NCBI GenBank assembly: GCA_041649895.1 | Contig: JBAZMG010000006.1 | Location: 1-23,655 of the forward strand | Reading direction: 5' to 3' | Length of the DNA: 23,655 nt | Source: Minisyncoccota bacterium | Lineage (GTDB): Bacteria; Patescibacteriota; Minisyncoccia; Minisyncoccales; Minisyncoccaceae | Shown: in pieces, positions 153 to 20,296 of the stretch | Position numbering within the stretch: the first letter of the stretch is position 1 | Layout: each line of letters starts with the position of its first letter | The notes under the pieces: model-generated | Told to the model about the DNA's origin: nothing | Databases searched by the model: none | What the model saw: only the letters and a program-made list of their open reading frames with translations | Made by a program: the position numbers and the translations under genes

Positions 153-380
153 TTTTCCAATCTCTGACCATCTGGGAATTGAAGGCGGAGGCGCGACGGC
201 GCCGAGCCGGGCCCGAGGAACACACCAGCAGGTGGGTATCCGAGGGCAATTCCCAGCATCCCGACTATTTTCCAGTCTCTGACTTTTTGGGAATTGAAGG
301 CGGAGTCGCGACGGCGACGAGCCGGGCCCGAGGAACACGCCAACAGGTGTGTATCCGAGGGCAATTCCCAGCATCCCGAC
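132..380 (+). repeat. 115-bp tandem repeat (2 full units plus a 19-nt third start); each unit begins with the tRNA-Pro 3' T-arm/acceptor sequence and contains a GC-rich hairpin module
   Basis: CAATTCCCAGCATCCCGAC at 132-150, 247-265 and 362-380 (period exactly 115); units near-identical apart from a few substitutions. Confidence 0.9.
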
Positions 381-2047: not shown

Positions 2048-2464
2048 ATGACCGCCGCTAATTCAAATCACAAGCTTCAGCTTGGGCAAATAGGGGAGAG
2101 TATAGCTCAAAAATACCTAATATCCAAGAAATACAAAATTTTGGATAAAAACTATTTTTTAAAGACCAAAACAAACCGCAAACTGGGAGAAATAGATCTT
2201 ATTGCCAAAAAGGGGAGTGTGTATGTTTTTATTGAAGTAAAAACAATAGCCGGCCGGGAGGGTAGGCGATTTCCACCCGCGGCAAAAATCAATCGTGTAA
2301 AAATAAAAAAGCTGATAAGGGTGGGGGAGAGCTGGCTTAAAAACCATAAACTTTCTTTGACTGTCCGGTGGCAAATTGATATAATTACTATTGAAATTGA
2401 CATTATTCGCAAAAAAGCCCTGGTCCGGCATTATGAAAACGCGATAGAAGATATTAAAAAATAA
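2048..2464 (+). CDS. yraN: YraN/UPF0102 family endonuclease-like protein
   Basis: 138-aa ORF with the family hallmark GEIDLIAKKGSVYVFIEVKT and typical size. Confidence 0.75.
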   Translation: MTAANSNHKLQLGQIGESIAQKYLISKKYKILDKNYFLKTKTNRKLGEIDLIAKKGSVYVFIEVKTIAGREGRRFPPAAKINRVKIKKLIRVGESWLKNHKLSLTVRWQIDIITIEIDIIRKKALVRHYENAIEDIKK

Positions 2465-2469
2465 ACTCT

Positions 2470-3102
2470 ATGCTTTCAAACCAAACTTTGCTGATCGTTT
2501 TAATTTTTTTCGGTTATCTTTTGGGTTCGATTCCGTTCGGATATCTTGTTGGAAAAATCAAAAATGTTGACATTAGGAAAAAAGGGAGTGGCGCCACAGG
2601 CGCGACCAACGTCTCCCGAACAGTGGGCTTTAAATATGCGATCTTGGTTGCGGCATTGGATATCGCTAAAGCGGTTCTACCTATATATATCGGGAGCCGT
2701 TTTTTTAATCCAAGCTGGAACGCAGATCCCGGGTGGCAAATGGCCCTAATCTCTATTGCTCCGGTATTAGGTCACATATTTCCAGTCTGGCTAAAATTCA
2801 AGGGAGGTAAGGGCGTGTCTGTTATCTTCGCTTGCATTATTATGGTAATGGGCTGGCAATACTCCTTAGTTCTTTTTGTCTTATGGCTGGCGCTCTTATT
2901 GCTTATAAAAACAATGAGTCTGACAAATATCTTAATTTTCCCGATTTTACCGTTCTTGTTTTGGTTCAGGACTCACTCTTGGGTGTATGTCTGGCTTGGT
3001 GTTTTTTATGTCCTTTTAATTTGGTGGGCGCATCGCGAGAATATAAAACGCATACGACAGGGGACTGAGCCGAAAACAATTCATAACAAAAATAAAGAAT
3101 AA
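2470..3102 (+). CDS. plsY: Glycerol-3-phosphate acyltransferase PlsY (acyl-phosphate dependent)
   Basis: 210-aa polytopic membrane ORF with GSIPFGYLVGK, GSGATGATNVSR and GHIFPVWLKFKGGKGV motifs. Confidence 0.85.
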   Translation: MLSNQTLLIVLIFFGYLLGSIPFGYLVGKIKNVDIRKKGSGATGATNVSRTVGFKYAILVAALDIAKAVLPIYIGSRFFNPSWNADPGWQMALISIAPVLGHIFPVWLKFKGGKGVSVIFACIIMVMGWQYSLVLFVLWLALLLLIKTMSLTNILIFPILPFLFWFRTHSWVYVWLGVFYVLLIWWAHRENIKRIRQGTEPKTIHNKNKE

Positions 3103-3127
3103 TAAAGCACGAATTAACTAATATTTA

Positions 3128-3300
3128 GGGCTTAATCCTTTTACAAATGATTAAGGGCGGAGCCGACGGCTTGATTGTACTCAATCACGGGCGCAGGGTT
3201 GACGAACCCGAGCCGGGCCTGAGGAAATTTTCAACAGAAAATTATCTGAAGGACGAGCCGGGACTTGAGCAAAACTTCAACAGGAGCTTATATGAAGGAA
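3128..3300 (+). repeat. Cluster of GC-rich structured modules (candidate ncRNA or leader) just upstream of the pilin array
   Basis: Hairpins CTTAATC/GATTAAG (3131-3155), AGCC-GAC-GGCT (3161-3171), TGATTG-TACT-CAATCA (3172-3187), GGGTT-GACG-AACCC (3196-3209), AATTTTC-AACA-GAAAATT (3226-3243). Invariant linkers GGGCGGAG and CGAGCCGGGCCTGAG are shared with the 181-247, 18599-18660 and 20213-20277 copies. Confidence 0.6.
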
Positions 3301-3320
3301 TCCTCAAACATTGAAAAACA

Positions 3321-4205
3321 ATGAAAAAAACTATAAAAAAACAATTTGCGTTTACATTAATAGAACTGCTTATCGTTATCGCAATAATCGGAATACTCTC
3401 TGCGTTGATTATCGTGGGAATGAATAATGCAACCCAAAAAGCGACAATCGCCAAAGCGCAAGTATTTTCCAATTCACTCCGTAATTCTTTGATGTCTGGC
3501 TTGTTTGCCGAGTATAAGCTCGATGGCAACGCCAGCGACACGTGGGGGACACACACAGCCGGAACAATCAGCGGCGCATCATCTTATGCGTCCTGTATAC
3601 AAAATACTTGCTATAGTTTCGATAGCGATGATGATTATATTGAACTCGCGGATGTCGCGGATTTAAGAATGATAACCGGAGGGACTATTTCCGTTTGGAT
3701 TTATCCAAAAAGCTACGGAGAGGGCACTCTTGGAAGAATAATTGATAAGTCGTCTTCGGGCGATTCCGGTTTAGGTGGTTATACTTTTAGGAATAGTTCT
3801 CTTAATAGATTATTGTTCGTAATAAATGACGGCACCAACACACTTACTCAACAAAACGTAATAACTTATAATCAATGGCAACTTGTGACAACTACTTTTA
3901 ATGATTCCGGTAGAAAGATATACGTTAACGGAATTGATAAAACGGCATCCGGAGGTAATGAAACAGATCTACCTCCCGACAGTACGGGAATAGTGGTTAG
4001 AATTGGAAACTCCGCATATGGAACAACCAGAACTTTTGACGGATATATTGATGATGTTCAAATATATAATCAAGTAATTCCGACTTCCCAAATCCAACAA
4101 AATTACTACGCGGGACTCAACAAACTTTTTGCCAACAGGGGAGTGGAAATATCTGAATACCAACAATGCTTAACTGAATTATCAAACAATTACGCTCAAC
4201 AGTAA
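3321..4205 (+). CDS. Type IV pilin-like N-terminus + LamG/concanavalin-A-like domain protein (paralog 1 of 9, most divergent)
   Basis: MKKTIKKQFA|FTLIELLIVIAIIGILSALI prepilin-type motif with Glu+5; LamG-type hallmarks (YSFDSDDDYIEL, TISVWIYP, FDGYIDDVQIYN); shared C-terminal tail QNYYAGLNKLFANRGVEISEYQQ. Confidence 0.85.
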   Translation: MKKTIKKQFAFTLIELLIVIAIIGILSALIIVGMNNATQKATIAKAQVFSNSLRNSLMSGLFAEYKLDGNASDTWGTHTAGTISGASSYASCIQNTCYSFDSDDDYIELADVADLRMITGGTISVWIYPKSYGEGTLGRIIDKSSSGDSGLGGYTFRNSSLNRLLFVINDGTNTLTQQNVITYNQWQLVTTTFNDSGRKIYVNGIDKTASGGNETDLPPDSTGIVVRIGNSAYGTTRTFDGYIDDVQIYNQVIPTSQIQQNYYAGLNKLFANRGVEISEYQQCLTELSNNYAQQ

Positions 4206-4232
4206 TGTTTGGGTATTCGATACCCAAACATT
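4204..4232. repeat. Intergenic palindrome type 1 (13-bp arms) upstream of an A-type pilin gene
   Basis: AATGTTTGGGTAT-TCG-ATACCCAAACATT, starting inside the stop codon of paralog 1. Confidence 0.8.
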
Positions 4233-4237
4233 GAAAA

Positions 4238-5176
4238 ATGATGAATAGAAATATAAAAACAAATTTGGCATTTACATTGATAGAACTACTTGTGGTTATC
4301 GCAATCATCGGGATTTTATCTGCATTAATTATCATTGGGATGAGCTCGACAACACAGAAAGCTAGTGTTGCCAAGGCGCAGGTGTTTGCCAATTCTTTGC
4401 GCAATTCATTGATGGCGGATATGGTTTCTGAGTGGAAGCTTGATGGAAACACCAATGATACTTGGGCGGCCTCATTTGCAAACAACGGAACCTGGTGGGG
4501 AACGACCGCGCCGAATACCGTCGCAACCTATGGAACTGCGTCCGAATGCGTTTCCGGACAATGTATGGATTTTGATGGCGTGGATGATATGGTGGACTTT
4601 GGGAGCAACGCTTCTTTATCTATGGGAACAAAAGATCACACAGTCTCTTTATGGGTTAAGTTTGATAATGCGACCGCAACAGACATAGACACATTGGTTA
4701 TCTGTGGAGCAATGACGGGAACAGGGAAAGATGGGTATTGGATTACAAGACTTACCGATAGATTATACTTTTATTTTACTGATGGAGAAGGAGCAAATAC
4801 AAGAATTGCCGGCTATTTATCCGCAGCCGGAACATTAATTGCTAATAATTGGTATCAAATAACCGTAACTATGGATAGGGACGGAAATGTAACGGGATAT
4901 ATAAACGGAACATCGCAAATAAGTTGGGCTATTTCTCCTCAGCCTGGAGACGTACAAAATTCCATAAGCTTTCGAATGGGAGCTTTTACTACATCCCTGT
5001 ATCGTCTCGCCGGTAAAATGGATGAAGTGAGAATTTTTCACGCTATTACGACAATATCTCAAATAGAGCAAAACTACTTCGCGGGACTGAACAAACTTTT
5101 TGCCAACAGGGGAGTGGAAACATCAGAATACCAACAACGCTTAACTGAATTATCAAACAATTACGCACGGGATTAA
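4238..5176 (+). CDS. Pilin-like + LamG-domain protein (paralog 2, subtype A); real start may be the second ATG at 4241
   Basis: M(M)NRNIKTNLA|FTLIELLVVIAIIGILSALI; EWKLDGNTNDTW...CMDFDGVDDMVDFG...TVSLWVKFDNA...GKMDEVRIFHAI; preceded by palindrome 4204-4232. Confidence 0.85.
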   Translation: MMNRNIKTNLAFTLIELLVVIAIIGILSALIIIGMSSTTQKASVAKAQVFANSLRNSLMADMVSEWKLDGNTNDTWAASFANNGTWWGTTAPNTVATYGTASECVSGQCMDFDGVDDMVDFGSNASLSMGTKDHTVSLWVKFDNATATDIDTLVICGAMTGTGKDGYWITRLTDRLYFYFTDGEGANTRIAGYLSAAGTLIANNWYQITVTMDRDGNVTGYINGTSQISWAISPQPGDVQNSISFRMGAFTTSLYRLAGKMDEVRIFHAITTISQIEQNYFAGLNKLFANRGVETSEYQQRLTELSNNYARD

Positions 5177-5206
5177 AATGTTTGGGGGTTAAACCCCCAA
5201 ACATTT
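5176..5206. repeat. Intergenic palindrome type 2 (13-bp arms)
   Basis: AAATGTTTGGGGG-TTAAA-CCCCCAAACATTT. Confidence 0.8.
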
Positions 5207-5213
5207 AAAAACG

Positions 5214-6104
5214 ATGAATAGAAATATAAAAACAAAATTGGCATTTACATTGATTGAGCTACTTGTGGTAATTGCAATCATCGGGATTTTATCCGCTTTG
5301 ATCATTATTGGGATGAGCTCGACAACGCAGAAAGCAAACATTGCAAAATCACAAATATTTGCCAATTCTTTGCGCAATTCATTGATGGGGGACATGGTTT
5401 CGGAGTGGAAGCTTGACGAAGGAGCTGGCGATACAATATCTGATACGTGGGGCAGCAATAATGGAACAAAAGCTGGGGCAACATGGGAAGCAATAACAAC
5501 CAACTGCGTCTACGGCAAGTGCTTATCTTTTGATGGTGATGCTGATAATATAAATTTCGGAAATAAAACTGATTTTAATTTGGCTAGCACAAGCCACACT
5601 ATTTCGGTTTGGTTTAAAACAAGTACGACAACTACTGACCATATAATTAGTCGCTTTAACGGCGGAAGTCCCGGCGCTGGATATGTTATTTTTGTGTCCT
5701 CTGGAAAGGTTTGTTTTTCGGAAAGAGCAGACGGGGGAGACTTTCTTGCCCGCGATTCAGCGCTAACCTACAATGATAATTCTTGGCATTTTGTAACTTA
5801 CACGGTTGATATTTCTTTAAAAACAGGGAGGTTTTGCATTGATGGAACTTTTTTGCCCCTGGATACTTATACTGGAAACTTAATAAATTATAATAATAAT
5901 TTATATATCGGTGGACCACAGGTAGGATACTATTTTACTGGCCTAATAGACGATATACGCATATATGATGCCGCAATGCCAGCTTTCCAAATCAACGAAC
6001 AATATTACACCGGATTGAATAAACTTTTGGCAAACAGGGGAGTGGAAACATCTGAATACGAGCAAAGAATCGTAGAATTAAATTATAATTATGCAGAAAA
6101 TTAA
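5214..6104 (+). CDS. Pilin-like + LamG-domain protein (paralog 3, A-type leader, divergent body)
   Basis: MNRNIKTKLA|FTLIELLVVIAIIGILSALI; CLSFDGDADNINFG...TISVWFK...FTGLIDDIRIYDAAM; preceded by palindrome 5176-5206. Confidence 0.85.
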   Translation: MNRNIKTKLAFTLIELLVVIAIIGILSALIIIGMSSTTQKANIAKSQIFANSLRNSLMGDMVSEWKLDEGAGDTISDTWGSNNGTKAGATWEAITTNCVYGKCLSFDGDADNINFGNKTDFNLASTSHTISVWFKTSTTTTDHIISRFNGGSPGAGYVIFVSSGKVCFSERADGGDFLARDSALTYNDNSWHFVTYTVDISLKTGRFCIDGTFLPLDTYTGNLINYNNNLYIGGPQVGYYFTGLIDDIRIYDAAMPAFQINEQYYTGLNKLLANRGVETSEYEQRIVELNYNYAEN

Positions 6105-7047
6105 AATTAACGCATTTACATTGATAGAACTACTTGTGGTTATTGCAATCATCGGAATTTTATCTGCTTTAATTGTTATCGGGATGAGCTCGACAACGCA
6201 AAAAGCCAGTGTTGCAAAAGCGCAAGTATTTGCGAATTCTCTGCGCAATTCGTTGCTGGCGGATATGGTTTCGGAGTGGAAATTGGATGACGGGACTGGA
6301 AACAGCACCACAAAAGATTCCTGGGCTTCGGCTTTTGCCAATACGGGGACCTTGGGAACAGCGGCAGTAGGGGATGCAAGCGAGCCCACATGGCTAAGTA
6401 CCGGTTGTGTTTCCGGAAACTGTCTTTCGTTTGACGGCGCTGATGATTATGTTGATTTCGGAAATAATGCGTCCCTATCAATGGGAACTAAAGATCATAC
6501 TGTATCACTCTGGGTTAAGTTTGATAATGCAACAGCGCCCGCTCCTAATAATGCGGAAACGCTGGCTCGTTGTGGGGTCCAAGCTGCCGGAGTTGGGCGG
6601 GATGGATATTGGATTTATAGGACTGGGAGTAGTCTATTTTTTTATTTTTCTGATGGTTCGGCGGATAGCATAGGCGGCTCATTATCAGGGTCCGGGACAC
6701 TAATAGCTAACACTTGGTATAACATAGTTGTTGCACTCGATAGAGATATTTCTGCCTATATGTATATAAATGGAGTTAAACAAACAGGCTACTCATTAAA
6801 TATCGTACCACAAAATGGAGACGTACAAAATACATCCTTGTTAATGATTGGGGCAACTTCAGCTGGCTATGGTCGGCTTGACGGTCAAATGGATGAGGTA
6901 AGAATCTTTCACGCTATTACGACAATATCTCAAATAGAGCAGAACTACTTTGCCGGACTGAACAAACTTTTGGCAAACAGGGGAGTGGAAACGTCTGAAT
7001 ATGAGCAAAGAGTCGCGAATTTAACTTCAAACTATGCAAAGAATTAA
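6091..7047 (+). CDS. Pilin-like + LamG-domain protein (paralog 4, subtype B)
   Basis: MQKIKINA|FTLIELLVVIAIIGILSALI; EWKLDDGTGNSTTKDSWAS...CLSFDGADDYVDFG; ATG lies inside the previous gene's NYAEN-stop codons (14-nt overlap). Confidence 0.85.
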   Translation: MQKIKINAFTLIELLVVIAIIGILSALIVIGMSSTTQKASVAKAQVFANSLRNSLLADMVSEWKLDDGTGNSTTKDSWASAFANTGTLGTAAVGDASEPTWLSTGCVSGNCLSFDGADDYVDFGNNASLSMGTKDHTVSLWVKFDNATAPAPNNAETLARCGVQAAGVGRDGYWIYRTGSSLFFYFSDGSADSIGGSLSGSGTLIANTWYNIVVALDRDISAYMYINGVKQTGYSLNIVPQNGDVQNTSLLMIGATSAGYGRLDGQMDEVRIFHAITTISQIEQNYFAGLNKLLANRGVETSEYEQRVANLTSNYAKN

Positions 7048-7978
7048 AATTAACGCATTTACTTTGATAGAACTGTTGGTTGTAATAGCGATCATCGGTA
7101 TTTTATCTGCGTTGATTGTTGTGGGTATGAGCTCGGCGACGCAGAAAGCCAGTGTTGCAAAAGCGCAAGTATTTGCTAATTCTTTGCGGAATTCCTTAAT
7201 GGCGGATATGGTTTCCGAATGGAAATTAGATGACGGAACCGGAAACAGCACAACGAAAGATTCCTGGGCTTCGACTTTTACTAATACCGGGACACTGGGG
7301 ACTGCGACGGTAGGGGATGCAAGCGAGCCCACATGGCTAAGTACTGGTTGCGTTTCTGGAAACTGTCTATCTTTCGATGGAGCTGACGACTATGTTAATT
7401 TTGGCAATAACGCTTCATTGAGTATGGGAACAAAAGATCACACAATATCTTTATGGGTTGAATTTATTAATCCAACGGCACTGCAAGATGAAACAATGAT
7501 TCGCACGGGAGCTGGCGGTAGTGGAGCTGGCTATTGGATTTATAGATTTACCGGAACAAATAAATTAAGGTTTCTTTTTCATGACGGAGTTGGTTCGCAG
7601 GCATCCGGATATTTGTCGGCGGATGGCACATTAGTTGCTGGTATTTGGTATAATATAGCTATAATAATGGATAGGGATTCCAATGCCCAAGCTTATATAA
7701 ACGGGCAAATACAAACCAGTTACCCAATAGTTATATCTGGAAACCAAGGAACTATACAAAATGTTACAAATCTAATGGTTGGAGCGCAAGACGCGTCAAC
7801 ACGACGGCTTACCGGCAAAATGGATGAAGTAAAAATATTTCACGCAATACCGTCAATCTCCCAAATTCAACAAAACTATTACGCCGGACTGAACAAACTT
7901 TTGGCAAAAAGAGGGGTGGAAACATCAGAATATGAGCAAAGAGTCGCGGATTTAATTTCAAACTACGCAAAAGAATAA
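7034..7978 (+). CDS. Pilin-like + LamG-domain protein (paralog 5, subtype B)
   Basis: MQRIKINA|FTLIELLVVIAIIGILSALI; same architecture; 14-nt overlap with paralog 4. Confidence 0.85.
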   Translation: MQRIKINAFTLIELLVVIAIIGILSALIVVGMSSATQKASVAKAQVFANSLRNSLMADMVSEWKLDDGTGNSTTKDSWASTFTNTGTLGTATVGDASEPTWLSTGCVSGNCLSFDGADDYVNFGNNASLSMGTKDHTISLWVEFINPTALQDETMIRTGAGGSGAGYWIYRFTGTNKLRFLFHDGVGSQASGYLSADGTLVAGIWYNIAIIMDRDSNAQAYINGQIQTSYPIVISGNQGTIQNVTNLMVGAQDASTRRLTGKMDEVKIFHAIPSISQIQQNYYAGLNKLLAKRGVETSEYEQRVADLISNYAKE

Positions 7979-8005
7979 TGTTCGGGTATTCGATACCCAG
8001 ACATT
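7977..8005. repeat. Intergenic palindrome type 1 (one mismatch, one G-U)
   Basis: AATGTTCGGGTAT-TCG-ATACCCAGACATT. Confidence 0.75.
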
Positions 8006-8010
8006 GAAAA

Positions 8011-8955
8011 ATGATGAATAGAAATATAAAAACAAATTTGGCATTTACGTTGATTGAGCTATTGGTCGTAATAGCGATTATTGGTATTCTTTCGGCTTTG
8101 ATCGTTATTGGGATGAGCTCGACAACTCAAAAAGCTAGTGTTGCCAAGGGCCAAGTATTTGCTAATTCTTTACGCAATTCGTTAATGTCAGATATGGTCT
8201 CGGAGTGGAAATTGGATGGAAACACTAACGACACTTGGGCGGCCTCGTACGCGAACAACGGAACTTGGTCAGGTCCAACCGCGCCAAACACAGTCGCTAC
8301 TTATGGACCGGCAGCTGAATGCGTTTCCGGACAATGTATGGATTTTGATGGAGTGGACGATTTAGTTGATTTTGGAAATAACGCTTCGCTATCAATGGGA
8401 ACAAAAGATCACACAGTCTCTTTATGGATTAAGTTTGACAATGCAACAGCCCCACAACACGAAGTTTTGATTATTAGTGGCGGCAACATTGTTGCTCCTG
8501 GATATGCTGGTTATGATATTTTAAGATACACCGGAATGAGTCGACTATATGTTGAATTTTCCGATGGCTCGGCAAATAATGTCGGTGCCTATTTATCCGC
8601 ATCGGGAACATTAGTATCTAATATTTGGTATAATATAGTAGTAATTTTTGACAGAGACGGAGTTGCCAAGGCATATATTAACGGATTGTCACAGGCGGGA
8701 ACATTAAATATATCGGTTCAACCGGGCAATGTACAAAATATTTACAACTTAAGGTTGGGGGCGTGGACACCGTCCCAATTTCGTCTTGCTGGTAAAATGG
8801 ATGAAGTGAGAATATTTCACGCGATAACAACACTTTCCCAAATTCAGCAAAACTACTACGCGGGACTGAACAAGCTTTTTGCAAACAGGGGAGTGGAAAC
8901 ATCCGAATATCAACAAAGGATCGTAGAATTAAATTCGAATTATGCAAAGAATTAA
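8011..8955 (+). CDS. Pilin-like + LamG-domain protein (paralog 6, subtype A); start may be 8014
   Basis: M(M)NRNIKTNLA|FTLIELLVVIAIIGILSALI; N-terminal ~150 aa near-identical to paralog 2; preceded by palindrome 7977-8005. Confidence 0.85.
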   Translation: MMNRNIKTNLAFTLIELLVVIAIIGILSALIVIGMSSTTQKASVAKGQVFANSLRNSLMSDMVSEWKLDGNTNDTWAASYANNGTWSGPTAPNTVATYGPAAECVSGQCMDFDGVDDLVDFGNNASLSMGTKDHTVSLWIKFDNATAPQHEVLIISGGNIVAPGYAGYDILRYTGMSRLYVEFSDGSANNVGAYLSASGTLVSNIWYNIVVIFDRDGVAKAYINGLSQAGTLNISVQPGNVQNIYNLRLGAWTPSQFRLAGKMDEVRIFHAITTLSQIQQNYYAGLNKLFANRGVETSEYQQRIVELNSNYAKN

Positions 8956-9895
8956 AATCAACGCATTCACATTAATAGAACTACTTGTGGTTATTGCAAT
9001 CATCGGGATTTTGTCTGCATTAATTATCATTGGGATGAGCTCGACAACACAGAAAGCTAGTGTTGCCAAGGCGCAAGTGTTCGCTAATTCTCTACGTAAT
9101 TCATTGATGTCGGATATGGTTTCGGAGTGGAAGCTTGATGATGGGACAGGAAACAGCACAACGAAAGATTCCTGGGCTTCGACTTTTACAAATACGGGGA
9201 CCTTGGGAACCGCAGCAGTGGGGGATGCAAGCGAGCCCACATGGCTAAGTACTGGTTGCGTTTCCGGAAACTGTCTTTCTTTTGACGGCACCGACGATTA
9301 TGTTGATTTTGGGAGCAATGCGTCTTTATCTATGGGGACTAAAGACCATACTGCGTCATTCTGGGTTAAATTTGATAATGCGGTAGCAATAGAAAATAAT
9401 ACACTGATTAAATGCGGGGCCTTCGGCGCCTCTCTTGGATCAGACGGATACTGGCTTGTTAGATTAAACGGTACAAACAAACTATATTGTTATTTCTCCG
9501 ACGGAGAAACAACAACATTGCTTGGTAATTATTTATCCGCGGATGGTTCTTTGGTTGCCGATACTTGGTACAATATTGTTGTAATGTTCGACAGGAGCGG
9601 AGTGGCTCAAGCATACATAAATGGCGTAATACAATCAGGAACACTAAACATATCATCACAAACAGGAGACGTGCAAAATAGTAGAAGTTTTACTATTGGA
9701 GCCTGGTCAGCAACACTACATCGATCCGCTGGCAAAATGGACGAAGTACGAATATTCCACGCGATTACGACACTTTCTCAAATTCAACAAAACTACTTCG
9801 CAGGACTGAACAAACTTTTGGCTAATGGGGAAGTGGAAACATCAGAATACCAACAACGCTTAACTGAATTATCAAACAATTACGCACGGGATTAA
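8942..9895 (+). CDS. Pilin-like + LamG-domain protein (paralog 7, subtype B N-terminus with the paralog-2 type C-terminus)
   Basis: MQRIKINA|FTLIELL...; the last 64 nt of the CDS plus the downstream hairpin are 100% identical to 5113-5210. Confidence 0.85.
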   Translation: MQRIKINAFTLIELLVVIAIIGILSALIIIGMSSTTQKASVAKAQVFANSLRNSLMSDMVSEWKLDDGTGNSTTKDSWASTFTNTGTLGTAAVGDASEPTWLSTGCVSGNCLSFDGTDDYVDFGSNASLSMGTKDHTASFWVKFDNAVAIENNTLIKCGAFGASLGSDGYWLVRLNGTNKLYCYFSDGETTTLLGNYLSADGSLVADTWYNIVVMFDRSGVAQAYINGVIQSGTLNISSQTGDVQNSRSFTIGAWSATLHRSAGKMDEVRIFHAITTLSQIQQNYFAGLNKLLANGEVETSEYQQRLTELSNNYARD

Positions 9896-9925
9896 AATGT
9901 TTGGGGGTTAAACCCCCAAACATTT
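9895..9925. repeat. Intergenic palindrome type 2 (identical to 5176-5206)
   Basis: AAATGTTTGGGGG-TTAAA-CCCCCAAACATTT. Confidence 0.8.
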
Positions 9926-9931
9926 AAAACA

Positions 9932-10870
9932 ATGAATAGAAATATAAAAACAAAATTGGCATTTACATTGATAGAATTATTGGTCGTGATTGCAATCATC
10001 GGGATACTTTCGGCTTTGATCATTATTGGGATGAGTTCGACGACACAGAAAGCTAGTGTTGCCAAATCGCAGGTGTTTGCCAATTCATTGCGCAATTCTT
10101 TGATGGCGGATATGGTTTCAGAATGGAAATTGGACGGGAATACTAACGATACTTGGGCGTCTTCAAATGCGAACAACGGAACGTGGTCGGGACCAACCGC
10201 GCCGAATGCCGTCGCTACTTACGGGACGGCAGCCGAATGCGTCTCCGGACAATGTATGGATTTTGACGGTGTGGATGATGTAGTTGATTTTGGAAATAAC
10301 GCTTCGTTATCAATGGGAACAAAAGATCACACAGTCTCTATTTGGGTTAAATTCGATAACGCATCACCCCCAACAGAAGAAGAAACATTAATTTTTTGCG
10401 GCGGAACAGTGGCCGCGACAGAAGGCTATTGGATCAGGAGACAAATTGGAGGAACAGGAATTTATTTTTGTTTTAACGATGGCTCGGCAACAAGGGCTAA
10501 CGGTGCTTTATCAGCGAACGGAACTTTAATTAATAATATTTGGTATAATATAGTAATAACAATGGACAGAGATTCTAATGCCCAAGCATATATAAATGGA
10601 CAAAAACAAACTGGTTATGTTGTTAGTCTCTCCTCTTGGCAAACCGACATACAGAATACTTATAATTTCCAAATTGGTGGATTTGGAGCTGTTTATACAA
10701 TGGCGGGAAAAATTGATGAAGTAAGAATATTCAATGCGATAACAACACTTTCTCAAATTCAACAAAATTACTTTGCAGGACTGAACAAACTTTTTACCAA
10801 CAAGGGAGTGGAACCGTCTGAATACCAAAAAGAGGTCACGAATTTAATTTCAAACCATGCAAAGAATTAA
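9932..10870 (+). CDS. Pilin-like + LamG-domain protein (paralog 8, subtype A)
   Basis: MNRNIKTKLA|FTLIELLVVIAIIGILSALI; preceded by palindrome 9895-9925. Confidence 0.85.
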   Translation: MNRNIKTKLAFTLIELLVVIAIIGILSALIIIGMSSTTQKASVAKSQVFANSLRNSLMADMVSEWKLDGNTNDTWASSNANNGTWSGPTAPNAVATYGTAAECVSGQCMDFDGVDDVVDFGNNASLSMGTKDHTVSIWVKFDNASPPTEEETLIFCGGTVAATEGYWIRRQIGGTGIYFCFNDGSATRANGALSANGTLINNIWYNIVITMDRDSNAQAYINGQKQTGYVVSLSSWQTDIQNTYNFQIGGFGAVYTMAGKIDEVRIFNAITTLSQIQQNYFAGLNKLFTNKGVEPSEYQKEVTNLISNHAKN

Positions 10871-11816
10871 CAAAGCATTTACATTAATTGAGCTATTGGT
10901 TGTGATAGCGATTATTGGTATTCTTTCGGCTTTGATCGTTATTGGGATGAGCTCAACAACACAGAAAGCCAGTGTTGCCAAGGCGCAAGTGTTTGCGAAT
11001 TCTCTGCGCAATTCGTTGCTGGCGGATATGGTTTCGGAGTGGAAATTGGATGACGGGACTGGAAACAGCACCACAAAAGATTCGTGGGCTTCGGTTTATG
11101 CCAATACGGGAACATTGGGAACAGCGGCGGTGGGGGACGCGAGCGAGCCAACATGGCTAAGTACCGGTTGCGTTTCCGGAAACTGCCTTGATTTTGACGG
11201 CGCTGACGATTATGTTGATTTTGGAAGCAATGCGTCTTTATCTATGGGGACTAAAGACCATATTGCGTCATTCTGGGTTAAATTTGATAATGCAGTGGCG
11301 GGCGCGCAACCCGAAACGCTAATAGTTTGCGGTTCAGTTACCGGTGGGGCGACTGGAGACGATGGTTATTGGATTGTACGCTATCAAGGAACAAGCAAAA
11401 TAAGAGGATATTTTTCTGATGGTTCGGCGGCATATATCGGCGGAGATTTATCTGCTAATAGTGTTTTTGTCGCTAATACTTGGTATAACATAGTAACAAC
11501 TTTTGATAGAGATGGAGTTGTTCAGGCATATGTTAATGGATTAAAACAAACGGGTTATTCAATAAACATTGCTCCTCAACAAGGAGATGTACAAAATTAT
11601 ATGAATTTGCGAATTGGAGCCTATTCGGCAACCGGACACCGTCTCGATGGTCAAATGGATGAGGTAAGAATCTTTCACGCCATAACAACGCTGTCTCAAA
11701 TAAAGCAAAACTATTACGCAGGACTGAACAAACTTTTTGCCAAAAACTCCCTAAATAGGGTAGAATATGAGTATAGGATGGCGGAATTACAAACTTCATC
11801 TTTAGCAAACAAATGA
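10857..11816 (+). CDS. Pilin-like + LamG-domain protein (paralog 9, subtype B, divergent C-terminal tail)
   Basis: MQRINKA|FTLIELLVVIAIIGILSALI; 14-nt overlap with paralog 8; its TGA stop overlaps the next gene's ATG (ATGA at 11813-11816). Confidence 0.85.
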   Translation: MQRINKAFTLIELLVVIAIIGILSALIVIGMSSTTQKASVAKAQVFANSLRNSLLADMVSEWKLDDGTGNSTTKDSWASVYANTGTLGTAAVGDASEPTWLSTGCVSGNCLDFDGADDYVDFGSNASLSMGTKDHIASFWVKFDNAVAGAQPETLIVCGSVTGGATGDDGYWIVRYQGTSKIRGYFSDGSAAYIGGDLSANSVFVANTWYNIVTTFDRDGVVQAYVNGLKQTGYSINIAPQQGDVQNYMNLRIGAYSATGHRLDGQMDEVRIFHAITTLSQIKQNYYAGLNKLFAKNSLNRVEYEYRMAELQTSSLANK

Positions 11817-12370
11817 TGCCTTATTTATTAGCTATTGCCTTATTCTTTCTTCCGGCTTACGTGGCGAATACCACGCCGCCTTTGGCAAACCGATTTAATA
11901 TTCTAAACAGCTTGTATAAGCCGATAGACAACAACAAGACAATAAACGGAATGCCGATCTTAGGCACACACAAAAGCTGGCGGGGATTGGTTTTGGAAAT
12001 CATATTCTGTACTGTCCTAACAGGAGCGATGTTTATTCTAAACAAGCAGTTCGGGTGGGGGATTTATGAATCACTCGGATTCGCCTACGAAAAGATCAAT
12101 GGCTTTGTTTTCGGTCTGATCTTTGGCGTTGGTATAGTTTTTGGCGATCTACTCTTCGCCTTTATCAAGCGCAGACTGCGCCTTAGGCCCGGGTTTCCTT
12201 TTATCCCGTTCGATCAGATCAACTATGTTATCGGTGCCTTTATTTTCACCGAACCAATCGCGCATTTGGGAATAAAGTTTTGGATCATTCTTGCCGGAAT
12301 AACCCTGATTATACACATTGTTTTCAATCGTCTTGGGTATAATATGGGGTTGCACAAAGCAAAATGGTAA
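11813..12370 (+). CDS. carS: CDP-archaeol synthase family protein (CarS / DUF46-like CDP-alcohol-forming cytidylyltransferase)
   Basis: 185-aa membrane ORF. By recollection of archaeal CarS it aligns block by block: FLPAYVANTTPPL, PIDNNKTINGMPILGTHKSWRGL, FGDLLFAFIKRRLRLRPGFPFIPFDQINYVIGA, C-terminal HIVFNRLGYNMGLHKAKW. Confidence 0.8.
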   Translation: MMPYLLAIALFFLPAYVANTTPPLANRFNILNSLYKPIDNNKTINGMPILGTHKSWRGLVLEIIFCTVLTGAMFILNKQFGWGIYESLGFAYEKINGFVFGLIFGVGIVFGDLLFAFIKRRLRLRPGFPFIPFDQINYVIGAFIFTEPIAHLGIKFWIILAGITLIIHIVFNRLGYNMGLHKAKW

Positions 12371-18498: not shown

Positions 18499-18734
18499 GC
18501 AAACATTTATTTAGACTGTATTATTAGGACGCTTCTCGCAAGAAAATTTTCACCAGAAAATTTGCTGAGCGCTTAATTATTTATTTTAAAATAATTAAGG
18601 GCGGAGGGCCGACGGGCCCGAGCCTGTCCTGAGCGCAAATTCAACTGAATTTGACGCGAAGGAGTGCAGACGCCGGCGACGGCCGGCGGATGACACGTCG
18701 AACGAATAATGCAGTCTAAAAGCTAAATGTTTGC
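18499..18734 (+). ncRNA. 236-nt GC-rich structured element closed by a ~27-bp inverted repeat (candidate ncRNA or MITE-like element) just upstream of tRNA-Arg
   Basis: Arms GCAAACATTTATTTAGACTGTATTATT (18499-18525) and AATAATGCAGTCTAAAAGCTAAATGTTTGC (18705-18734). Internal hairpins at 18544-18563, 18572-18599, 18606-18619 (GGGCC-GACG-GGCCC), 18636-18653, 18672-18687 (GCCGGC-GACG-GCCGGC). Confidence 0.55.
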
Positions 18735-18816: not shown

Positions 18817-18841
18817 CAGCAAATTTTGCTGACGCAAAATA

Positions 18842-18943
18842 TTGCAGTAATTAGTAGTTTGTAGTTTGTAATTAGGGTAAGGAAATTATTAGGATAACAA
18901 AATTTGCTCCCAAAGTACCAACTACTCACACAAAGTACAAAAG
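18842..18943 (+). repeat. tRNA-linked ~100-nt repeat, copy 1 (long imperfect hairpin)
   Basis: TTGCAGTAATTAGTAGTTTGTAGTTTGTAATTAGGGTAAGGAAATTATTAGGATA...TTTGCTCCCAAAGTACCAACTACTCACACAAAGTACAAAAG; the TTTGTAG heptad arm pairs with the CAAAGTAC arm. Confidence 0.8.
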
Positions 18944-18945
18944 CG

Positions 18946-19066
18946 TTGCAGTAATTAGTAGTTTGTAGTTTGTAATTAGGGTAAGGAAATTATTAGGATA
19001 TTTTAAAGTAAAATTTATTCCCAATCCGCCAGCTGGCGGAACAAATTACTCACACAAAGTACAAAA
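18946..19066 (+). repeat. tRNA-linked repeat, copy 2 (carries an extra CCGCCAGCTGGCGG hairpin)
   Basis: First 54 nt identical to copy 1; 3' arm ACAAATTACTCACACAAAGTACAAAAA. Confidence 0.8.
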
Positions 19067-19072
19067 ATTTTT

Positions 19073-19427
19073 ATGTTTGATTTTGAAAAATTAGACGTCT
19101 ATAAAAAAGCAAAACAACTAAATAAAAATGTTTTGCGTTTCCTGAAAAAACAACAAACAAATAGATACATATCTTAGAGACCAGCTAAAAAGAGCTTCCA
19201 TTAGTATTGTCATAAACATAGCGGAGGGGAGTGGGAAATTTTCAAAACCGGACAAAAAGAACTTTTACACAACTGCCCGCGGGTCCACGTATGAGTGTGT
19301 TTCTCTGCTTGAAATTATATGCGAAGAAGGCTATATTTCCAAAGAAATCTTTGATATTTTTTACAAAAACTTCGAAATTATCTCAAAAATGCTATTAGGA
19401 CTAATAAATAGCCAAAACAAGGCTTAG
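19073..19427 (+). pseudogene. Four-helix-bundle protein gene (23S rRNA intervening-sequence protein family), disrupted by a 1-nt frameshift
   Basis: Frame A: MFDFEKLDVYKKAKQLNKNVLRFLKKQQTNRYIS-stop (TAG 19175-19177). Frame B from 19179: DQLKRASISIVINIAEGSGKFSKPDKKNFYTTARGSTYECVSLLEI...KMLLGLINSQNKA-stop. Removing one T near 19172 would give NRYILRDQLKRAS. Confidence 0.75.
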
Positions 19428-20076: not shown

Positions 20077-20104
20077 CAGCAAATTTTGCCCCCGAGGCAA
20101 AATC

Positions 20105-20205
20105 TTGCAGTAGTTTGTAATTTGTAGTTTGTAGTTTGGGTAAGGAAATTATCAGGATATATAAAATTTGCTCCCAAAGTACAAATTACACACACAAAGT
20201 ACAAA
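20105..20205 (+). repeat. tRNA-linked ~100-nt repeat, copy 3
   Basis: TTGCAGTAGTTTGTAATTTGTAGTTTGTAGTTTGGGTAAGGAAATTATCAGGATA...TTTGCTCCCAAAGTACAAATTACACACACAAAGTACAAAG; homologous to 18842-18943. Confidence 0.8.
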
Positions 20206-20296
20206 GGATTCGAAGGCGTAGCCACGACGGTGGCGAGCCGGGCCCTGAGAATTTTTCAGCAGAAAAATATCGAAGGGCGAATCCCTCACGGGGCAC
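20206..20296 (+). repeat. GC-rich structured module fused to a 19-nt duplicate of the tRNA-Lys 3' end
   Basis: GGATTCG (20206-20212) pairs with CGAATCC (20278-20284). Hairpins GCCAC-GACG-GTGGC (20221-20234) and ATTTTTC-AGCA-GAAAAAT (20251-20268). CGAATCCCTCACGGGGCAC at 20278-20296 duplicates 20059-20077. Confidence 0.8.

Follow-up and report, generated by a model that had tools for sequence, protein, structure and literature searches.

The GC-rich cluster at positions 3120-3312 of the window (a 23,655-nucleotide stretch that is contig C6 of a 959-kb genome, G000, 82% complete and with 41.7% GC) is a real conserved structure. Judged from sequence comparison, it is a decayed three-hairpin element within a split palindrome of the ATGTTT type, and a second, complete copy of the same element (3170-3252) is nested in the middle hairpin of the outer copy. 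Both copies belong to an uncatalogued repeat family whose members are concentrated next to tRNA and pilin genes. The repeat would be a mobile, non-autonomous DNA element of ca. 85 nt with conserved structure, composed of hairpins H0, H1 and H2, and we consider it likely that the cluster is one of its passenger copies. What had been supposed to be a regulatory leader would then be a trace left by the dynamics of genomes in CPR bacteria, where mobile elements are poorly catalogued.

The element is located downstream of plsY (2470..3102, + strand), which codes for glycerol-3-phosphate acyltransferase, and upstream of nine pilin (N-methyl)-LamG genes (3321..11816, + strand). The latter contain plain palindromes at 4205-4231, 5178-5204 and 9897-9923 and are followed by a carS-like gene (11813..12370, + strand). 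The nearest tRNA ends at position 486, and there is none within 2.6 kb of the element. The first-pass annotation had described 3156-3270 as strikingly GC-rich, which is indeed the case (56.5% GC, the window having 41.4%; among 47,462 genome windows of 115 nt, 2.0% reach this value), and the pieces that it named are present where it placed them; the genome around them, which it called AT-rich, is only moderately so at 41.7% GC. Contigs assembled in a second study (run X2) cover positions 2400-3182 and 3158-3361 with zero differences, and thus the cluster is not an assembly artefact.

Read from left to right on the + strand, the outer copy starts with a decayed 5′ arm of an ATGTTT-type (REP/TIR-like) palindrome (3120..3130), which can be aligned to its intact counterpart in G001:C19, G000:C5 and G005. 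This arm is followed by the leading hairpin H0 in a long-loop variant (3131..3155), as in G001:C19, a genome of the same genus, and by the 5′ half of H1 (3156..3169), which extends to the GG after the GACG loop, where the inner copy was inserted. The inner copy comprises H0 (3170..3189), near-identical at C5, C8 and C35, as well as H1 (3190..3214) and H2 (3218..3252), both delimited by an alignment of 20 copies and by covariation. The outer copy then resumes with the 3′ strand of H1, the linker and a decayed H2 (3253..3298; 83.6% to C5 over 55 nt, E 1e-10) and ends with the decayed 3′ arm of the palindrome (3299..3312). Immediately downstream follows an A-rich start context, as internal pilin genes typically have.

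Intact palindrome-bounded counterparts of the outer copy, to which it can be aligned, are present at C5, C8, G001:C19 and in G005. A covariance model, built from the inner copy among others, matched positions 3179-3261 with 85 bits and the decayed outer H2 at 3262-3298 with an E value of 0.0043. The same nesting occurs after tRNA-Thr at G000:C35:6600-6760. In addition, in a contig of run X1 (depth 7.6, with 43 letters on the short side), position 3162 is connected to 3254 by 12 letters, which make H1 complete. This contig appears to be of the un-nested parent type; X1 is possibly the source run, and the contig possibly comes from a paralogous site. The arrangement is therefore not the 2-3 tandem copies that had been proposed, since the complete copy lies inside a decayed one made up of 3120-3169 and 3253-3312. 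The letters of a mini-stem formerly drawn at 3161-3171 are there, but the stem spans the junction between the outer and the inner copy. Because the decayed last hairpin and the split palindrome arms are included, the element extends to 3312, which leaves 8 nt to the first pilin ATG at 3321 rather than ~20 nt. The first-pass annotation lacked both leading hairpins (3131-3155 and 3170-3189), the decayed last hairpin (3262-3298) and the palindrome arms.

The region 3118-3313 folded better than 200 out of 200 shuffled sequences, both as DNA (z -4.6) and as RNA (z -3.1). A descriptor scan of the genome returned 21 matches, of which 20 were real copies and one, a chance match on C47, was dropped. 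When the 20 genome copies were aligned, 98.0% of 400 stem cells were paired and compensatory changes were found in 15 of the 20 stem pairs. None of 500 shuffles reached this level, a result that should not be taken as a probability as the aligned copies are related to each other. In slid controls of the same alignment, pairing fell to 28-53%. The stems thus vary in sequence yet remain complementary, as had been noticed earlier, while a 15-mer termed invariant on the same occasion differs already among the copies within the window. The core of the module consists of H1, a short linker and H2. H1 is built of 3 bp, a GNA/GA internal loop, 5 bp and a GACG loop, and H2 of an 8-pair helix with tandem GA/GA, a bulged A, 7 bp and a 4-nt loop. 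The GA tandem of H2 can be displaced by one position, and Watson-Crick pairs can take its place, but the helix keeps its length; it follows that geometry, and not sequence, is conserved. A comparison of the window with Rfam gave 18 matches at E<=5, none of them over 3128-3300.

The covariance model matched the cluster as well as the copies beside tRNAs in the window, which bears out the proposal that they share one module. The latter are two tandem type I copies linked to tRNA-Pro (173..370), an H0-type copy upstream of tRNA-Arg (18589..18671) and a type I copy linked to tRNA-Lys (20204..20286), all on the + strand. The search for further copies that had been suggested yielded 29 matches in G000 and 22-48 in each of eight relatives from genera g1, g4 and g5, with 0 matches in the remaining 32 of the 41 genomes; within the family, the module was not found in 16 of 24 relatives. 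Among 150 other Patescibacteria genomes sampled across the phylum, five carry the module, four of them in the tRNA-linked layout. A scan of genome collections gave 21 loci, and those titles that name a group (only titles were used) point mostly to Patescibacteria/Paceibacterota. One locus, L204, came from the metagenome scan, and viral contigs gave 0 exact matches to the one 30-letter pattern tried.

We profiled G000 as a whole and the regions around matches in the eight relatives (few loci for G012, G013 and G024), which together contained 200 hits, 198 of them distinct. Approximately 136 are tRNA-sense, 37 are of the palindrome type and 25 are other or unclassified; the classes were assigned by regular expressions and are imperfect, with at least one, C15, wrongly placed in the palindrome type and some hits being second halves of compound sites. 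Type I copies lie in sense orientation directly 3′ of a tRNA, after an inverted copy of its T-loop/T-stem that matches at 9 of 9 positions in 50 out of 70 cases. In 69 of 70 scorable copies (seven could not be scored), the module is followed by a tRNA duplicate that starts exactly at C56. The distance from the tRNA end to the first type I copy is 16-78 nt, and it is 60-78 nt in 49 of 75 cases. Many tandem units of ~147-154 nt were seen in several genomes. The start of the first module at most 78 nt after the tRNA, taken together with the unit length, suggests a length ruler.

Outside of type I, modules were found in antisense orientation in the T-loop, in the D-loop, in another palindrome family (genus g4) and in another module. 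Comparison of the D-loop and antisense T-loop cases with the intact tRNA revealed insertion after GG with two bases replaced. Wherever an intact parent served for comparison, the module directly follows GG in a hairpin loop, with no short target-site duplication. Its landing sites after GG lie in T-loops and D-loops of tRNAs, in two families of palindromes and in the module itself. At G000:C51:5350-5650 (L006), a remnant of tRNA-Arg(GCG) is split in the T-loop by an antisense module whose H0 loop contains a complete spare tRNA-Arg. At G000:C35:6287-6359 (L003), the T-stem of tRNA-Thr(TGT) is mismatched and its 3′ strand fits the arm of the module; it looks as if the 3′ end of this tRNA had been replaced. 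The family yields a precise insertion rule open to testing, namely that the module lands after GG, replaces two bases and has its right junction at C56 of the T-loop, and it offers two interchangeable types of ends together with candidate enzymes. What the locus at 3120-3312 contributes is the palindrome-bounded form, self-nesting alongside the parent form, the validity of the 2-nt rule across targets and the enrichment at pilin genes.

Sequence comparison indicates the following history for the locus. An older copy was carried inside a split ATGTTT-type palindrome as a REPIN-like composite; a second copy entered its H1, and the outer copy decayed. The composite probably came with the pilin genes when a block of 8.5 kb entered the plsY-carS operon. 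The module presumably works as folded single-stranded DNA.

One can instead regard the module as a functional RNA involved in processing, stability or protein binding, which normally trails tRNAs and at the present locus protects or processes the plsY-pilin transcript. The prevalence of sense copies at a short distance 3′ of tRNAs speaks for it, tandem GA pairs are in keeping with RNA, as is a three-way junction, and three of the comparable tRNA-linked repeats (TLRs) of E. coli, located downstream of rRNA operons, are transcribed according to the accessible part of the report (PMC8144298). It is also true that 22 of 27 palindrome-type copies run in the direction of the upstream gene, but a replication bias would fit this equally well. 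Yet stem mismatches were G-T in 23 and A-C in 21 out of 1,634 pairs (the hits not being independent), and hence there is no sign of wobble on an RNA strand. Antisense insertions occur in tRNA-Arg and tRNA-Glu, five copies are opposite to both flanking genes, and at one orthologous site the module is on the same strand in G005 and on the opposite strand in G019. The absence of matches from two thirds of the family mentioned above and the nested, half-decayed state of the 3120-3312 copy also speak against this account, which we judge to be unlikely. An RNA role is compatible with mobility, and both can hold. As for replication, module orientation agreed with raw GC skew in 27 of 34 cases, raw skew being confounded with gene direction, and with skew at four-fold sites in 14 of 34. 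An origin at G019:C3, supposed for the replichore test, was not borne out.

The first-pass annotation had placed the cluster in the promoter or 5′ leader of the nine-gene array, where it might serve as a dedicated element for pilin regulation. Several features invite this reading: the element lies immediately before the first ATG, and the first pilin gene has no -10 box of its own, unlike 11 of 20 first-in-cluster pilin genes. Moreover, decay of the outer H2 has produced a 10-codon ORF (3292..3324, + strand), the stop codon of which overlaps the first pilin ATG and the start codon of which, missing from parent copies, is preceded at 5 nt by AGGAG. This ORF may be a chance product, and its translational coupling to the first pilin gene, again by chance, is possible. 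However, searches of 2900-3500 found 0 sigma-70-like promoters where 1.6 are expected, and no 5/6 match to TATAAT exists within 3100-3320. No intrinsic terminator (hairpin plus U-tract) was found on the + strand of 2900-3500, and a TATAAT sequence is present at 2033, before yraN.

Relatives point in the same direction. In G005 and G019, modules lie up to ~190 nt upstream of six pilin genes, which might seem to support a leader, but in four of these cases, all on the same strand as the gene, a TG-n-TATAAT box is situated between the module and the ATG, and in the remaining two the module is antisense to the gene. Seven further palindrome-type sites in these two genomes are near pilin 3′ ends, and likewise the two closest paralogues, C5 and C8, sit after the last pilin gene of other clusters. 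A comparison of the leader across orthologous arrays, proposed earlier, met with no orthologous array in the relatives examined. In 14 of 15 relatives with an orthologous locus (11 in one set, one of them read from an antisense ORF, and three of four in another), plsY joins the carS-like gene directly. The exception, G004, has a different pilin-like gene between the two, with its own -10 box and no module. Since none of the 15 has a module at the plsY-carS locus, the array and the element represent a lineage-specific insertion, the right edge of which is the carS-like gene. A plsY orthologue from the same genus was not found (not assembled), only weak paralogues, and no empty-site strain was seen at the plsY-pilin locus. 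With no promoter site, no orthologous array and modules upstream of the -10 box elsewhere, a dedicated pilin leader is unlikely, and we give this explanation very little weight. The element may be passively transcribed as an intercistronic stretch, in which case the transcript, if there is any, would start from the promoter before yraN.

The association with pilin genes itself is pronounced. In G000, the palindrome is present in 24 of 56 pilin-adjacent gaps compared to 15 of 443 other gaps (odds ratio 21). Palindrome-type module sites touch a pilin gene in seven of 14 cases in G019 and six of 16 in G005 (13 of 30 together), the expectation being ~10% if 700 genes are assumed. One G019 pilin gene is bracketed by two direct modules, and the right end of the array, at its junction with the carS-like gene, has no palindrome. 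In large part, this enrichment could be co-duplication of palindromes with genes. A more far-reaching interpretation, which we regard as improbable, would have the leading hairpin arm act as a built-in guide, either complementary to the T-loop of the occupied tRNA or swapped for generic palindrome arms, and, in two genera, the palindrome-bounded form scatter pilins. Together with a domesticated HUH transposase, this form would copy pilin genes into a repertoire of dozens of adhesin-headed pilins, and 3120-3312 would be the left scar of the insertion of the array into a lipid operon. The enrichment provides a manageable case in which to ask how REP/RAYT systems serve their hosts. A strict N-terminal motif identifies 62 pilin-LamG-type ORFs in G000, with two types of junctions, palindrome-separated or start-stop overlapped. 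Matches to PF07953 in the pilins overlap a stronger LamG match and were for this reason read as fold overlap.

Which enzyme might mobilise the repeat was approached through the palindrome. The ATGTTT-type palindrome was found in only five of 41 genomes (36, 19, 23, 11 and 28 exact matches), while the reversed control gave 0. At three of three loci, in G000, G005 and G019 (genera g1 and g5), it brackets a gene for a ~250-aa HUH/Y1 protein. The three proteins are 67-68% identical, with the HUH motif and the Tyr conserved, and score 31-46 bits against the NCBIfam RAYT model, below its cut-off of 80. At two of the three loci (G005 and G019), module-bearing composites adjoin the HUH/Y1 gene. We put the chance that the palindrome-bounded form was moved or amplified by this neighbouring transposase, of RAYT/TIRYT type, at somewhat below even; the tRNA-linked form would require a further enzyme. 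A RAYT-like gene is present in six of nine module-bearing genomes of the family and in one of five distant ones (seven of 14; the assemblies are incomplete), in three of the five palindrome-bearing genomes (again from incomplete assemblies) and also, where the module is lacking, in 10 of 16 other families. The RAYT-like genes of genus g4 (L077-L079, in G018, G024 and G012) are flanked by another palindrome, of the GAGGTCGGACCTC type, and no module was seen at these loci. The GAGGTCGGACCTC-type palindrome is repeated ca. nine times in tandem in G018, and the RAYT-like gene of G012 has an internal stop. No enzyme tracks the module in all genomes. RAYT is missing from seven of 14 module-bearing genomes, and the HUH/Y1 protein stands as a candidate mobiliser suggested by gene neighbourhood.

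A different candidate is a small stand-alone GIY-YIG nuclease or a host Xer-type recombinase acting on hairpin DNA in place of an HUH transposase. GIY-YIG enzymes often leave 2-nt overhangs. Small GIY-YIG ORFs (open frames of 80-143 aa) were found in eight of nine module-bearing genomes of the family, compared to 0 of 16 without the module, and in four of five distant module-bearing genomes; in G018, one such ORF directly follows a module that sits within the ORF's own family of palindromes. In this family of genomes, the GIY-YIG ORFs follow the module more closely than the RAYT-like gene does. Against this, the ORFs occur widely outside the family, including order-level relatives that have no module (e.g., G025, G030, G037 and G039), and they are missing from G165 and from G019, the genome with most module copies. 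Their genes also have flanking palindromes of their own, of the CGTC type (L150, L220, L221 and G000:C12:11811-12002), a class reported, in the part of the source available, as being without a dedicated transposase (PMC3733652). The tyrosine recombinase family is present in 25 of 25 genomes and therefore does not discriminate. We hold a mobiliser of either kind to be rather doubtful, with the HUH/Y1 transposase preferred for the palindrome-bounded form. Three further candidates were rejected: the IS110 domain PF02371 (one of five genomes) and the reverse transcriptase domain PF00078 (three of five) do not track the module, and Nop PF01798 was found in 0 of five. G000 also encodes an IS110-family domain (C21:2559-2720), two reverse transcriptase ORFs (C29:12-515 and C28:2465-3061) and an IS200-like Y1 gene (C72:5-331).

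By analogy, the element would work like a non-autonomous element of the REPIN/TIRtron type. The comparisons below refer to the accessible portions of the cited reports. As in REP/REPIN-RAYT and tag-less TIRtron/TIRYT systems, multi-copy extragenic palindromes bracket a single HUH/Y1 gene; as in REPs and REPINs, composites have palindrome ends and an inner spacer, and a hairpin of variable sequence has a conserved bulge (PMC3733652, PMC8266576). RAYT-type enzymes cut single-stranded REPs and require the stem bulge (PMC8266576). The geometry of the inner three-hairpin module is much better conserved than that of a REPIN spacer, and the module also occurs without palindrome arms, in tRNA loops, in a second palindrome family and in itself. 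In contrast to REPs of the GTAG class, ATGTTT palindromes have no fixed GTAG/GTGG tag; an internal loop of the module contains GNAG, the second base of which varies. The tag-less palindrome flanks resemble the TIRtron class (PMC3733652). The replacement of 2 nt after GG and the occurrence of the module in genomes without the transposase set it apart from REP/RAYT as well.

Type I copies resemble E. coli TLRs, which are arranged in tandem downstream of a tRNA and close with a repeat of the tRNA 3′ end (a copy of 18-19 bp) (PMC8144298). Type I copies differ in having the inverted T-loop/T-stem copy and a module shared between different tRNAs. The element at 3120-3312, unlike TLRs, contains no such tRNA duplicate, though many type I paralogues have one. 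Another parallel is provided by prochlorosins and TnpA-REP (bioRxiv 10.1101/2020.03.09.984088), where expanded paralogues with a constant N-terminus and a variable C-terminus likewise coincide with an HUH system in a streamlined genome. There, transposase genes are found among the paralogues, whereas here palindromes and modules lie among the pilins, and the question of causality was left undecided by the authors of that report (bioRxiv 10.1101/2020.03.09.984088), as far as its available text goes. TIGR stem-loop arrays (PMC12045711) are also made of hairpin units in CPR genomes, but our module, with its fully paired stems, lacks unpaired spacers between box C/D motifs. The Nop-domain protein of TIGR-Tas (PF01798) was found in 0 of five genomes searched, a search that a divergent Tas could escape. 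Within the literature searched, i.e. titles and abstract openings with subscription papers mostly outside, the element is not described.

Several minor observations were made alongside. In G093, a reduced relative of the module (L175 and L170), closed by its own inverted repeats, is found away from tRNAs. In the window, related AT-rich repeats follow tRNA-Arg and tRNA-Lys (18818-19427 and 20078-20200), accompanied by a four-helix-bundle ORF (TIGR02436), an open frame without an ATG start. Finally, positions 660-1950 of the window combine a GC-skew minimum with repeated palindromes and 9-mers, which is consistent with a replication origin.
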